From a candidate division WOR-3 bacterium (GTDB lineage: Bacteria > Hydrothermota > Tepidihabitantia > Tepidihabitantales > Tepidihabitantaceae): a stretch of 64,000 nucleotides of DNA. Below, piece after piece: positions 37,217 through 41,376 of the stretch. The position numbers were made by a program, and so were the translations under genes. Position 1 is the stretch's first letter. Each line of letters starts with the position of its first letter. The notes beneath the pieces were generated by a model. The model saw nothing but the letters and a program-made list of their open reading frames with translations, was not told the origin of the DNA and did no database searches. Location of the stretch: the NCBI GenBank assembly GCA_965649165.1, contig CBFGJT010000001.1, positions 139,853-203,852 of the forward strand, in the 5' to 3' direction.

Positions 37217-39220
37217 CTATTCCGAAATTACCAGCCGGACCGGTGCCTGCCGGTTCAGTCGGAGGAAGTAGATCCCCGGTCTCAGGCTCCGTCCATCAGG
37301 TCCATTAAGGGTCAATGTCCGGTTCTCGCCAGTGATGGTGAAGTTTTGAACGACTCTGCCTGCGGGGTCGGTGAGTTTCAAGGTTGCCGGCTGCTGTATA
37401 GACGGGTTTGGGTAAATTACGGTGGTTGTCCGGGCAGGATTTGGAAGAATCCGCAGGAAGCGCTGATAGTCCGTCCGCCTCGGTTCAGCGGTGGCGATGC
37501 CGGTGGTGTTGGCGCCTTCAATCGCATCAAGATGAAATGCTCCGATGGCGGTGAGTCGAAGAAAACGGATACTGTCCAGGCCGGCAGAACCGATGTCGAG
37601 GTAGGTTTCGGGTGCATCGGCGGTGTCCAGCGTCGTCCACGGTCCGAGCCAGCTCTGGGCACCCTGAACCAGCGCATTGCCGGTGCCGGCTGAGCGGTAA
37701 ATCACCAGTTCACTGCCTTCACGGTTGTAAACCGGTTTTCCCATATCAAGACAGATCGTTTTCCCGTTGTCCAGAAGAAAGGCATCTTCATCATCGGGAC
37801 CAAGCGCCCGGACCGGATAGGTGCGGTGGGAGGATGGGGTGACGAAACTGTTGTAGATATGCCGGAAGGCAAAGAGCGGCGCGGCTGAATCAGGCGTGAG
37901 CCGGATTTCAAGCCAGACTGCGGAGTCACCGGTTGCGGAAACAGTGACATTTTCAATTGTGGTGTCACGATAACCCGGCGCCCGGAATGTAAGGGTATAG
38001 GTGCCGGGTAGATAGAATCGGTGAAAGTCGCCGACCGCTGGACTGTTGTAGCTGAGCCAGTTGGCGGGACGGACCCAGATTTGACAGGGCACCGGCATGC
38101 CGGTGAGCGCATCGGTGACTGTTCCGTGAATTCCCTTTCCTGCCAGATGGATGAACTCCAGTATTGCCGGCAGATTGAGATTAAAGCACGGGTCGATTTC
38201 GGATGCGGGTGGGGTTTTCTGGGGGTGGACTTCAATTGACCAGCTCATCATGCCATAGCCGTAATCAAAATCCTTGGTTGAACCGTTGATTAGATACATT
38301 GAGTCTGCACCCTGGCCATAGGTGTAATGAGTCCAGTGGTCATAGCGGGCAGATAGGAACTGGATCAGGTTCAGTTCGGGAATTGTGTTCTGATAGGAGT
38401 AGCAGTAGCTCCAGGGGTGGGAGATGAAGGTGGTGCCCGCATGATAGGAAATGATGACAACTGCAGGATTACACCATATATGAGCAAGCACCGCCTGGTT
38501 CTCCGGTTCTGAACAAGGGCTTGCCCCCTGAGAAATTTCATCCCCCCACATCCAACCCCAGTTGCGGTTCAAATCAACACTGTTGCCGTTATACCGGCTG
38601 GAACTGATATAACCGTCCGGGTTGTACATCGGCAGGAGATAAATTTCCCGGGTGTCAATCAGGCGGGTAACCAGAGTATCACTGCCGTAGTTGCGGACAA
38701 GATATTTGAGCAGCTCAAAGGTGATCGCCCAGCCGATTTTCTCATCGCCGTGAATGTTGCCTTCAAAATGAACCACAGGCTCCGGTTCATCAATCTGGGG
38801 ATTATCGGAGATTTTCATCATCAGCAGCAGATTGCCCCGGTAACTCAGACCCAAGGTTTCAAGCCGGCAGATTCCCGGATTGTTTGCCGCAATGACCGCC
38901 ATCGTATCGCAGTATTCGGCATAGGTCAAATACCGGCCATCACTTTCTTGAAAGTTGCGTTCATAAGTTCCAGTTATATCAGGTGTTATGACTTGAATCT
39001 TATAACCTTTAGCAGTCAGGAGCCGCTGCTGACCGGCGGTTGCCTCGGCAACAACGCCGGTCCGGTTGACATAATTTACCCAGGCGCCGAAGTTTTCAAT
39101 ATTCTGTACGTCATCTCTGGTGGCATTAGTAATTCGAATGAGATCCCGCGACTGTGCCGGGCTGATGTTGAAAAATGCCATAACTTCAGCAAGTATTAAA
39201 AAAACTCTACTTAATTTCAT
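37217..39220 (-). CDS. Secreted M14 zinc carboxypeptidase with a T9SS/FlgD-like C-terminal domain
   Basis: Signal peptide; IHGDE; NSVDLNRNW; SYHAG; SIEVH; C-terminus LRPGIYFLRL. Confidence 0.85.
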   Translation of the reverse strand: MKLSRVFLILAEVMAFFNISPAQSRDLIRITNATRDDVQNIENFGAWVNYVNRTGVVAEATAGQQRLLTAKGYKIQVITPDITGTYERNFQESDGRYLTYAEYCDTMAVIAANNPGICRLETLGLSYRGNLLLMMKISDNPQIDEPEPVVHFEGNIHGDEKIGWAITFELLKYLVRNYGSDTLVTRLIDTREIYLLPMYNPDGYISSSRYNGNSVDLNRNWGWMWGDEISQGASPCSEPENQAVLAHIWCNPAVVIISYHAGTTFISHPWSYCYSYQNTIPELNLIQFLSARYDHWTHYTYGQGADSMYLINGSTKDFDYGYGMMSWSIEVHPQKTPPASEIDPCFNLNLPAILEFIHLAGKGIHGTVTDALTGMPVPCQIWVRPANWLSYNSPAVGDFHRFYLPGTYTLTFRAPGYRDTTIENVTVSATGDSAVWLEIRLTPDSAAPLFAFRHIYNSFVTPSSHRTYPVRALGPDDEDAFLLDNGKTICLDMGKPVYNREGSELVIYRSAGTGNALVQGAQSWLGPWTTLDTADAPETYLDIGSAGLDSIRFLRLTAIGAFHLDAIEGANTTGIATAEPRRTDYQRFLRILPNPARTTTVIYPNPSIQQPATLKLTDPAGRVVQNFTITGENRTLTLNGPDGRSLRPGIYFLRLNRQAPVRLVISE

Positions 39221-39235
39221 TTTACTCCTCTTAAG

Positions 39236-39263
39236 AGATTAGTCAGTTATATATCAATGTCAA
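39236..39263 (-). promoter_or_regulatory. Promoter of the M14-M16-M16 operon
   Basis: TTGACA, 16 nt, TAATCT; AGAGGAG SD before ATG 39220. Confidence 0.6.
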
Positions 39264-39362
39264 AATATTCAGCAGGGAAGTTATTGACGTAACACTAAGA
39301 AATGTCGCACAATTTTTTAAAGGAAGTTCAGCCAGTTAAATAAAAGGAAATGTCGAATTATT

Positions 39363-39572
39363 ATGTGGCTGACAATGACGGCTGTTATCTTCTGGTTAGT
39401 TGTTCCTTTGGGGCTCAGCTATAGCAGCTGGGGAATTGATGATGCCGGAGAAATCCCTTGCTGGCCGCTGAATGGTGGTTATCTTACCGATTCAGTTATT
39501 GAGCTTGATGTGGTAGGCAGAAAGGTTGCCCCAGAAATGATCAATTACTCCGGAGTTTTTTATCCAATATAG
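39363..39572 (+). CDS. Short ORF with a signal-peptide-like N-terminus (possible gene remnant)
   Basis: 69 aa; AAAGGA SD-like sequence upstream; hydrophobic N-terminus; no family recognised. Confidence 0.3.
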   Translation: MWLTMTAVIFWLVVPLGLSYSSWGIDDAGEIPCWPLNGGYLTDSVIELDVVGRKVAPEMINYSGVFYPI

Positions 39573-39608
39573 CAAGAGGAAACGGGGCATCGGACACAAA
39601 ATTATAAT

Positions 39609-39894
39609 CGTGCGTTGATTCTTTTTCTGGTCGCCGAGTTTAATTTAACTTTTGCCGAATGGGAACCGGACCGGCGACTGATTGAAAATCCAGGTGTTTC
39701 ATTGGCCCCGCGAAACAGTCAGCGTTGTATTGTCAGCAAGGCATGACCGGAGCGGTGTTAATCAGATCTATTATTGGCGTTCTACCAACCGGGGGAGACC
39801 TGAGGGGAAGAGGCAATGGATTTCTGATGTCAGCGGGCGACGGTTAAATGGTACATCAACGGCTGGGAGCCGGGTTTTATTTTGTCCTGACTGA
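39609..39894 (+). pseudogene. Frameshifted, start-less remnant of a secreted BNR/Asp-box repeat protein
   Basis: Frame A RALILFLVAEFNLTFA-EWEPDRRLIENPG...RCIVSKA*; frame B HDRSGVNQIYYWRSTNRG resembles a W.D.R.GN..IYY.RSTDGG repeat. Confidence 0.45.
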
Positions 39895-39927
39895 TTTTAG
39901 CAGACAGAAGTACATAATTACCCGTCG

Positions 39928-40503
39928 CTAATAAACAACTACGACACCGGAAGGAATTACTTTTGCTCTGACTTGGCGGATGCCGTTGCGTCGTTTGGCA
40001 TAAACCCGAATCCGGTAGTTGTAGCCGGTTCGGGGTTCAAATCCGACGATCGTGCCCGCGATGCTGCGGTTGGGTTTGGAAGGACCTGCCCAAATGAAGA
40101 CGATGGTTTCAATGATCGCCATCGGGTCATAGTAAAACGATTCACGGTCTTCGGGGGAAAGTCCCTTGAAGACCTCGCCGGCGATTTCAACATGAGAGTG
40201 GAAGTTGCCCAGAAAGCGGAGGTGAAATCGGAAACTGAGTTCGCGGCGCCGCCTGATCACCCGCCGGATCATCGCCCAGTCCCGGAAGGTGATGCCGGTC
40301 CGGCTCTTTTCTCCGCCTCGATAGTAGCATACCCGGCGGACTACCAGTCGATGTTCATGGTTGATGGTGCCGAAGAGGAAACCGAATGTTTCCCGTTTGA
40401 ACTTGGCTTCATACCCCCGGCGGGCAAAACTGCACAGTTCGCGGACCGCCGACTCTTCAAACAGAATCGGGGCCCGGAAGCGCACGAGCGGGTGGATTGA
40501 CAT
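39928..40503 (-). CDS. JAB/MPN+ (Mov34) domain metalloprotein, Arg-rich
   Basis: RETFGFLFG (catalytic Glu); GNFHSH; LSPED (JAMM E...HxH...SxxD); 29 Arg in 191 aa. Confidence 0.75.
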   Translation of the reverse strand: MSIHPLVRFRAPILFEESAVRELCSFARRGYEAKFKRETFGFLFGTINHEHRLVVRRVCYYRGGEKSRTGITFRDWAMIRRVIRRRRELSFRFHLRFLGNFHSHVEIAGEVFKGLSPEDRESFYYDPMAIIETIVFIWAGPSKPNRSIAGTIVGFEPRTGYNYRIRVYAKRRNGIRQVRAKVIPSGVVVVY

Positions 40504-40510
40504 TAGCTTT

Positions 40511-40538
40511 ATTTTAGCACTCGCCCGCAGCAGGTCAA
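40511..40538 (-). promoter_or_regulatory. Promoter of the JAB gene (leaderless)
   Basis: TTGACC, 16 nt, TAAAAT with TGn extension; ATG 7 nt downstream; no SD. Confidence 0.6.
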
Positions 40539-40546
40539 ATCATGAT

Positions 40547-40618
40547 AAAAAATGCCGCTGGAGGGCCTATGCCACGATGGTTGATACGCCAACCAGGGCA
40601 ATCGCCCGACCAGCAGCA
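40547..40618 (-). ncRNA. Candidate small structured RNA (four-way junction ending in U6)
   Basis: UGCUGCUGG/CCAGCGGCA closing stem; hairpins GGGC-GAUU-GCCC, UGGUUG-GCGUAU-CAACCA, GGC-AUAG-GCC; UUUUUU tail; promoter-like motif ends 5 nt before the stem. Confidence 0.45.
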
Positions 40619-40623
40619 GAAAA

Positions 40624-40651
40624 TAAATACAATAGCTTTTTTCGATGTCAA
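40624..40651 (-). promoter_or_regulatory. Putative promoter of the candidate sRNA
   Basis: TTGACA, 16 nt, TATTTA (the -10 lacks the final T). Confidence 0.4.
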
Positions 40652-40686
40652 GCAATTTTCTGGTGCTGTCGGAGAGTAAAATTAAT

Positions 40687-40714
40687 TTGAATTGAGGCGG
40701 TAAAAAATTATATT
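40687..40714 (+). promoter_or_regulatory. Promoter of pcm (leaderless)
   Basis: TTGAAT, 16 nt, TATATT; GTG start 5 nt downstream. Confidence 0.5.
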
Positions 40715-40719
40715 TTTCT

Positions 40720-41376
40720 GTGGAATCAAAAAATGAATTCAGTCAGCGTCGGAAGCTGATGGTAGAAGAACAGATTGCTGCCCGCGGTGTCAAGGACGAG
40801 CGGCTTCTGACGGCGATGCTGAAGGTGCCGAGACATCTTTTTGTCCCGGAAGGTTTTGTGCATCAGGCTTATGAAGATTATCCTTTGCCGATCGGTCATG
40901 GGCAGACAATTTCTCAGCCCTATATTGTGGCGGTAATGACCGAGGCATTGCAGGTTGGGAAGCAGCACCGGGTGTTGGAGGTTGGCACCGGTTCTGGTTA
41001 TCAGACCGCCCTTCTGGCGGAACTGGCGGGAATGGTATATACAGTGGAAATAATTGAGGAACTTTCGATCCGGGCGCGGCAGATTCTCAACCGGCTGGAT
41101 TACCGGAACATCAGGTTCAAAGTCGATGATGGCAATGAGGGTTGGAAGGAGTTCGCCCCCTATGACCGGATTATCGTTACCGCTGCGGCAGAGTCAATTC
41201 CTTATGCCCTTGTCGAGCAATTGAAGGAGCAGGGCCGGCTGGTAGCACCGGTGGGACCGGTAGGGGCACAGAGTCTGATTTTAGGGGTGAAGCACGGGCA
41301 ACGGCTGGTGCAGCGATCATTGATGAGCGTGGTATTTGTGCCACTGGTGCGGAGCAAGCCTTCTGTTGACTGCTGA
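40720..41376 (+). CDS. pcm: Protein-L-isoaspartate O-methyltransferase
   Basis: VPRHLFVP; LPIGHGQTISQPYIVA; LEVGTGSGYQ; APYDRIIVTAA; FVPLV. Confidence 0.95.
   Translation: MESKNEFSQRRKLMVEEQIAARGVKDERLLTAMLKVPRHLFVPEGFVHQAYEDYPLPIGHGQTISQPYIVAVMTEALQVGKQHRVLEVGTGSGYQTALLAELAGMVYTVEIIEELSIRARQILNRLDYRNIRFKVDDGNEGWKEFAPYDRIIVTAAAESIPYALVEQLKEQGRLVAPVGPVGAQSLILGVKHGQRLVQRSLMSVVFVPLVRSKPSVDC

Follow-up and report, generated by a model that had tools for sequence, protein, structure and literature searches.

A probable gene for a rod-like small RNA of about 70 bases in one family of WOR-3 bacteria

What is encoded by the self-complementary stretch that lies upstream of a JAB metalloprotease gene in a candidate division WOR-3 bacterium? 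The stretch occupies positions 40547-40651, minus strand, of the window, by which we mean the whole 64,000 nucleotides of DNA that were analysed, and an earlier note had read it as a four-way-junction RNA that might form an RNA-protein module with the JAB protein. To our knowledge, WOR-3 has no cultured member; a full-text literature search returned no paper on non-coding RNA in WOR-3, and a search for WOR-3 together with JAB proteins returned no relevant paper. We propose that the flagged stretch is very probably a self-contained gene for a non-coding RNA of ~70 bases, found so far in only one WOR-3 family.

Layout of the locus and strand of the RNA

Read on the minus strand, the locus runs from TTGACA through 16 nt to TATTTA and, ~5 nt further on, into a 66-nt self-complementary stretch followed by six T. 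Its features and neighbours are as follows:

40646-40651, minus strand: -35 box TTGACA of the small-RNA promoter, read in the sequence
40624-40629, minus strand: -10 box TATTTA, 16 nt past the -35 box
40547-40618, minus strand: predicted RNA of ~70 nt, a rod-like interrupted hairpin with a U6 tail (from fold, model matches and covariation)
40610-40618, minus strand: 5' strand of helix P1, UGCUGCUGG, which pairs with CCAGCGGCA at 40553-40561 and holds an invariant U.G wobble
40608-40609 (UC) and 40562 (U), minus strand: 2x1 internal loop between P1 and P2
40604-40607, minus strand: 5' strand of helix P2, GGGC, which pairs with GCCC at 40563-40566
40597-40600, minus strand: 5' strand of helix P3, UGCC, which pairs with GGCA at 40570-40573
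40578-40595, minus strand: apical hairpin UGGUUG-GCGUAU-CAACCA, which varies within the family
40570-40573, minus strand: 3' strand of P3, GGCA (fold and alignment)
40563-40566, minus strand: 3' strand of P2, GCCC (folds and alignment)
40553-40561, minus strand: 3' strand of P1, CCAGCGGCA (RNAfold, RNAalifold and alignment)
40547-40552, minus strand: U6 tract of the intrinsic terminator, read in the sequence
40511-40538, minus strand: separate JAB promoter, TTGACC, 16 nt, TGcTAAAAT (10/12 matches plus the TG), starting 8 nt past the U-tract
39928-40503, minus strand: JAB/MPN+ (JAMM) gene, 191 aa, ATG at 40503, with a weak Prok-JAB Pfam match; a neighbour with no proven part in the function of the RNA
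40720-41376, plus strand: pcm (protein-L-isoaspartate O-methyltransferase), the divergent neighbour (Pfam PCMT, E = 4.7e-64)

The promoter, stem and U tract that the earlier note had described are all found on the minus strand, with TTGACA at 40651-40646, TATTTA at 40629-40624, UGCUGCUGG paired with CCAGCGGCA and the six U residues at 40552-40547. The proposal that the RNA has a promoter and a terminator of its own, distinct from the promoter of the JAB gene, is borne out as well; both elements can be read in the sequence and are kept in homologues, and the JAB promoter at 40538-40511 begins 8 nt past the U-tract, as had been stated. TTGAC(A/T) is found at the same place in all homologues of the rod RNA, and all of them carry a U-rich tail. 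The -10 box of the other lineages reads TATAAG, TATAAC, TAAATA or TAGAGT at the same spacing, and it is imperfect in that it lacks the final T in four of the five lineages, for which reason the promoter scan that picked out the JAB promoter does not list it. As a whole, the arrangement of TTGACA, 16 or 17 nt, TAnnnn and a hairpin with a U tract is kept in five lineages and lies outside coding sequence, which is the layout of a small-RNA gene with its own promoter and its own intrinsic terminator. The start of the RNA is predicted to lie ~7 nt past the -10 box, at the first bases of P1. Differences in the length of the apex break the reading frame among homologues, and a conserved open reading frame can thus be ruled out.

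It was also observed that the small-RNA promoters combine a perfect or near-perfect -35 box (TTGACA in most) with the -10 boxes TATTTA, TATAAG, TATAAC and TAAATA, unlike the promoters of neighbouring genes, which have canonical TAnnnT -10 boxes. Judged by their sequences, small-RNA promoters with a -10 box that lacks the final T may represent a promoter subclass.

The minus-strand orientation proposed previously agrees with several observations. A central U.G wobble in P1 is found without exception (12/12 sequences), and several further one-sided substitutions produce nothing but wobbles; as an RNA read from the plus strand would have C.A mismatches instead, these substitutions argue for an RNA on the minus strand. 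The covariance model gives 84-99 bits on the forward strand as compared with 10-15 bits on the reverse strand, and the promoter and the U tract point in the same direction. The folding energy of the sense strand is better than that of the antisense strand in 8 of 11 cases, a comparison that does not decide the strand by itself.

Conserved fold and distribution of the RNA

Comparison with shuffled controls, which had been suggested as a check, indicates a non-random fold: RNAfold gave a minimum free energy of -39.1 kcal/mol for a 74-nt stretch, compared with -24.1 +/- 3.0 kcal/mol for 200 dinucleotide shuffles, none of which was as good (z = -4.95). The predicted structure is a rod, in which P1 (7-9 bp) is followed by a small internal loop (2x1 in most homologues), P2 (GGG/CCC), a loop of ~3x3, P3 and a variable apex. 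When 12 representative homologues from five lineages were folded singly, the same rod was obtained as the structure of minimum free energy for every one of them (12/12), and the RNAalifold consensus of ten homologues is the same rod as that predicted by RNAfold. In an alignment of 12 sequences, 95.5% of the cells of the rod are paired, as opposed to 31-57% with slid partners. Four pairs of the rod, spread across P1, P2 and P3, change on both sides in these 12 sequences and give a covariation score that 0 of 500 shuffles reach, a result that needs to be read in the light of there being four such pairs, mostly among close relatives, and of the fact that related sequences without structure can exceed a shuffle control. 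The double-sided changes in P1 are found in columns 3/93 and 9/87 (UA to GC and UA to CG). P2, with GGG/CCC invariant in 12/12 sequences, has one such change (CG to AU), and in P3, all cells of which are paired, C-G is replaced by U-A in two separate lineages (L017 and L192). The compensatory changes expected of a structured RNA family are thus present, though with few divergent lineages they lend modest support. It is the helices that are conserved, namely GCUGC/GCGGC with its invariant U.G wobble and GGG/CCC, invariants that partly reflect the search, as the model and the pattern used to find homologues reward these motifs; the unpaired bases and the apex drift. The apical loop varies in length and sequence within the low-GC genera, and the whole apical hairpin is replaced in the diverged copies of G018, G020, G043 and L192.

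The four-way junction put forward in the earlier note was only partly upheld. P1 and the apical helix are common to both folds, but the D-like and T-like arms are unsupported. The GGGC at 40607-40604 pairs with the distal GCCC at 40566-40563 and not with the adjacent one, both in the RNAfold and RNAalifold predictions and in the 12 homologues. Among the 12 sequences, the D-like arm has wobble changes only and no double-sided changes, and the T-like arm has no compensatory change and is broken in 4/12 sequences at one pair and in 2/12 at another. From the comparison of these sequences we conclude that the conserved fold is one long interrupted hairpin and not a four-way junction.

Using a first covariance model built from ten sequences, exactly one copy of the rod RNA per genome was found in 13/13 genomes, with scores of 84-99 bits. 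These genomes belong to g1 (7/7), g2 (1/1) and g3 (5/5), three low-GC, small-genome genera of one WOR-3 family. A search of its own 1.37-Mb genome (G000) likewise gave a single copy. Repeats and mobile elements such as REP or MITE, which need several copies, were rejected on these counts. Genus g13 (G018 and G043), G020 of g15 and the metagenome contig L192 have diverged copies. All of these comprise TTGACA, a -10 box at a distance of 16-17 nt, a stem ~7 bases past the -10 box and a U-rich tail. Beyond these, a phylum-wide search with the model and an order-level search with a second model gave no credible match in the remaining genera of the family, nor in the rest of the order or phylum. The weak matches of the phylum-wide search fall on the 3' half of tRNA-Arg(CCU) or on coding DNA and were dismissed as noise. 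Those in family f28 (L063-L065, L068, L069) correspond to three parts of tRNA-Arg(CCU) (AGGUCGGGGGUUCGAnUCCCUCCUGGGGC), namely its variable loop, T arm and 3' acceptor strand, and this tRNA and the rod RNA have GGUCGGG and CCCUCC in common, probably by chance. Matches of a pattern scan in Actinobacteria, Kiritimatiellae and Opitutaceae were likewise set aside as chance events in GC-rich DNA (18-19 bits for the two that were scored). When metagenome contigs were scanned with the pattern, 6/80 loci among the matches listed were true homologues, all from clades already seen.

Between this genome and those of g1-g3, the RNA is 82-91% identical, the JAB coding DNA 71-75% and the spacer between RNA and JAB 48-63%, and the promoter region outside the boxes is ~60-74% identical. 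Judging by these identities, the cassette is under stronger purifying selection than its neighbours.

A small RNA predicted to act in trans and its relation to known RNA classes

In our view, the cassette is best explained, with a probability of roughly 0.65, as an autonomous small-RNA gene, a promoter-to-terminator unit for a structured RNA that would act in trans, with its lower stem as the part read by a protein or an enzyme. In this reading, a sigma-70-type promoter (TTGACA, 16-17 nt, TAnnnn) would start transcription at the closing stem or within a base or two of it. The polymerase would then make 65-80 nt and stop at the RNA's own hairpin and U-tract, resulting in a product that is little more than a rod-like hairpin with a 5'-triphosphate and a short U tail. 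The single-copy cassette would keep its promoter and terminator across changed genomic contexts. Conservation centred on the helices, together with drifting loops, favours a structured RNA that is recognised by a protein over a regulator that pairs through a seed, and a bare hairpin from the start of transcription onwards, conserved in its helices and not in its loops, points to a protein-recognised RNA as well. Such an RNA would constitute a clade-specific, single-copy small RNA family whose conservation exceeds that of the surrounding protein genes; with ends predicted to the single base it is a concrete target for metatranscriptomes, and it could seed an Rfam family.

A cmscan of 40350-40850 against Rfam gave no match at the locus at gathering scores or at E <= 10, consistent with the statement that no Rfam family had been recognised; otherwise, the Rfam search returned three tRNAs elsewhere and one chance match. 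ARAGORN also found three tRNAs in the window and none at the locus, and the earlier opinion that the RNA is not a tRNA holds on both counts. Nor does the locus match a known element such as a simple terminator or a repeat: it is single-copy, has its own promoter and matches no Rfam family.

The RNA has a size of ~70 nt, paired 5' and 3' ends and three internal hairpins that can be drawn by eye in common with tRNAs. However, it is a rod and not a cloverleaf, without a T loop, D loop, anticodon loop or CCA/discriminator, and the tRNA family (RF00005) was rejected in view of the negative ARAGORN and Infernal results, D-like and T-like arms without covariation and a T-like arm that breaks. SRP RNA (RF00169) was rejected since a canonical SRP RNA (54-64 bits, above the cut-off) is encoded elsewhere in 12/12 genomes tested, including G000, and the rod RNA has no sequence similarity to it. 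Among known families, it is the Y RNAs that the rod RNA most resembles in its layout. Like the Y RNAs (RF00019) and the bacterial YrlA, it has a similar size (~70-110 nt for Y RNAs), a long conserved end stem with a bulge, a variable top and a 3' U tract, and its lower stem contains CUGGUC, which we take to be a motif of vertebrate Y RNAs. In contrast to them, it has no tRNA-like module, the covariance models of Y RNA and YrlA gave no match in the Rfam search at E <= 10, and there is no Ro60 gene: PF05731 (TROVE/Ro60) is absent in 18/18 genomes, including all RNA-bearing genera, and was found in the controls Deinococcus and Bacteroides, so that a true Y RNA was rejected.

The RNA also shares features with trans-acting small-RNA genes, which have their own sigma-70 promoter and intrinsic terminator and a length of 50-300 nt, as it is an intergenic, stand-alone, single-copy unit confined to one lineage, with a terminator hairpin that forms part of the predicted mature RNA. 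It differs from them in being nearly all one hairpin with conserved helices and no conserved single-stranded seed, and in that a tblastn search of this 76%-complete genome gave neither Hfq nor CsrA. Intrinsic (Rho-independent) terminators have the GC-rich hairpin directly before a U tract in common with it, but there is no upstream gene to end here, a promoter lies 5 nt before the stem, the hairpin is far longer (~22 pairs, with conserved internal loops) and is better conserved than the DNA that flanks it, and hairpin and promoter relocate as a unit. Lastly, single-hairpin antisense RNAs of plasmids and transposons, such as RNA-OUT of IS10, Sok and CopA, resemble it in being one long interrupted stem-loop of ~60-90 nt with a strong promoter. 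These RNAs are encoded opposite their targets, whereas the opposite strand is untranscribed intergenic DNA here, and the locus is chromosomal and single-copy, with no mobile-element or toxin gene attached.

On the basis of the analogy to Y RNAs, one might speculate that the RNA forms the core of an undescribed ribonucleoprotein of this WOR-3 clade, in which a protein reads the U.G wobble and the GGG/CCC helix. The JAB protein would be a candidate partner because of the long-kept adjacency of the two genes. We consider such a ribonucleoprotein unlikely; with JAB as its partner, it would mean an RNA-bound or RNA-regulated JAMM isopeptidase, for which we know of no precedent.

Downstream genes and alternative readings

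The gene that follows the RNA is not the same in all genomes. A nearly unchanged cassette is located between a SIMPL-like gene and a class-V aminotransferase gene in G048 (genus g3); it precedes proS in G020 and a MATE transporter gene in G043, and in G018 it lies beside an ABC-F gene near the end of the contig and precedes an unidentified stretch. In all four genomes, JAB is found on another contig. TTGAC and a -10 box of the JAB promoter are kept at all JAB-linked low-GC loci. In the window, the JAB start codon is located ~7 nt past the -10 box, at about +1, and the mRNA is therefore predicted to be leaderless. This layout, for which the loci are 40503-40538 of the window, L196 1576-1622 and L198 1340-1395, has no Shine-Dalgarno sequence, and 6-9 nt separate the end of the -10 box from the JAB start codon. 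The proS, MATE and aminotransferase genes 3' of the RNA in other genomes are arranged likewise, and other genes in the window have strong AAGGAGG sites.

The element could also act in cis on the downstream gene, either as an upstream promoter and terminator that insulate or modulate a leaderless promoter (by occlusion, supercoiling or delivery of polymerase) or as an attenuator controlled by a protein. In line with this, in each of the five contexts known the RNA is co-oriented with the gene that follows, the start of which lies 45-100 nt beyond the end of the RNA, and a promoter is found 8-50 nt past the U-tract where one is recognisable. However, the predicted transcript begins at the stem, so that there is no competing antiterminator; the downstream genes (JAB, aminotransferase, proS and MATE) are unrelated in function and have their own promoters; and an RNA produced by read-through would have no Shine-Dalgarno sequence before start codons that are set for leaderless translation. 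In addition, a mere insulator would need neither 82-91% identity nor an invariant U.G wobble and compensatory changes. We regard action in cis as unlikely, while placing it ahead of the other alternatives. The regulatory attenuator of the earlier note is not supported, as an antiterminator would find no space in a transcript predicted to start with the closing stem itself, at its first base, and the downstream genes have their own promoters and are mostly leaderless; an attenuator or riboswitch was rejected, with no upstream partner for an alternative structure and no consistent class of downstream gene.

The RNA-protein module suggested previously would make the RNA a guide, a scaffold, an antitoxin-like partner or a regulator of the Arg-rich JAB metalloprotease, with the two genes paired. 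That the RNA is kept beside JAB homologues, with compensatory changes, proved correct: 12 of the 13 g1-g3 genomes have it at a distance of 48-62 nt from JAB, on the upstream side, as do contigs L194 and L192, on the latter of which JAB is only 62% identical and the RNA still adjoins it. This adjacency holds across at least four different upstream neighbours, and every genome found with the rod RNA also has a JAB homologue. Against a pairing of the two genes, the intact cassette and JAB lie on different contigs in G048, G018, G043 and G020, the next gene being unrelated to JAB where it is readable, and at least ten genomes or contigs have a JAB homologue without the rod RNA upstream. In the sister family f2 (L026, L027), a tRNA-Gln(CUG) with its own promoter, which has no sequence relation to the rod RNA, sits upstream of JAB in the position of the rod RNA. 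The RNA and JAB have separate promoters, and the JAB protein looks like a plain JAMM enzyme. Its E, HSH and S..D residues are invariant in 44 JAB homologues, and its AlphaFold model (pLDDT 88) matches best the folds of BRCC36, Rpn11, PfJAMM1 and Cap3; RNA binding is not described for any of these best-matching structures. According to this model, JAB is an ordinary JAMM/MPN+ isopeptidase. An obligate RNA-protein module with JAB is thus not supported, and the module in any of its forms seems improbable to us, more so than action in cis. The link between RNA and JAB is one of shared ancestry of gene order and not a proven functional pair, and there may be a lineage-specific link.

A third alternative, a regulatory RNA that base-pairs with mRNAs through the anti-Shine-Dalgarno-like CCCUCC or another segment, would suit the promoter-to-terminator layout, which is typical of trans-acting small RNAs, and GGCCCUCC in the 3' half resembles an anti-Shine-Dalgarno sequence, with Shine-Dalgarno sites such as AAGGAGGA present in this genome (family D15). 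But every fold has CCUCC hidden within the helices P1 and P2, and the motif is not conserved, being replaced by CCCUUC in G043, CCCCAC in L192 and CCCCAUU in G020. Conservation is lowest in the unpaired segments, the matches by complementarity found across the genome (14-19 nt, at the level of BLAST) are no better than chance and the absence of a detectable Hfq in this incomplete genome does not help such a role. A base-pairing regulator is thus quite unlikely and ranks below the module.

That the stretch is not an RNA gene at all, but a palindrome in the DNA (an operator or a site of recombination) or the decayed remains of, for example, a tRNA, is very improbable: it does sit between divergent promoters, a tRNA-Gln takes the same position before JAB in the sister family and the 3' half of tRNA-Arg(CCU) gives weak model matches in other members of the phylum, but only an RNA of the minus strand can account for the invariant U.G and for substitutions that are confined to wobbles, there is no tRNA signal at E <= 10 or with ARAGORN, tRNA-Gln(CUG) is present elsewhere in this genome, the tRNA-Arg matches are at noise level (E-values of 0.001-0.03 per genome across 272 genomes) and the stretch is conserved above its neighbours and has compensatory changes.

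Further observations concern the surroundings of the JAB gene. In the window, ~780 bp without an open reading frame of more than 83 codons separate the JAB stop codon from the start of an M14 carboxypeptidase gene (39151-39929). The same gap measures ~135-145 bp in the closest relatives G001 and G002, indicating an insertion of ~650 bp in this genome; the inserted sequence occurs nowhere else in the genome and matches no Rfam family. At L017 (G007), and in G007 only, GCCCGACC in the spacer of the JAB promoter was seen to be the exact reverse complement of GGUCGGGC, a segment of the RNA directly upstream. Two JAB paralogues are present in several genomes of higher GC content within the family (G041, G018, G042, G044, G046 and G053), and in G041 they are arranged in tandem (C45:1956-3197).
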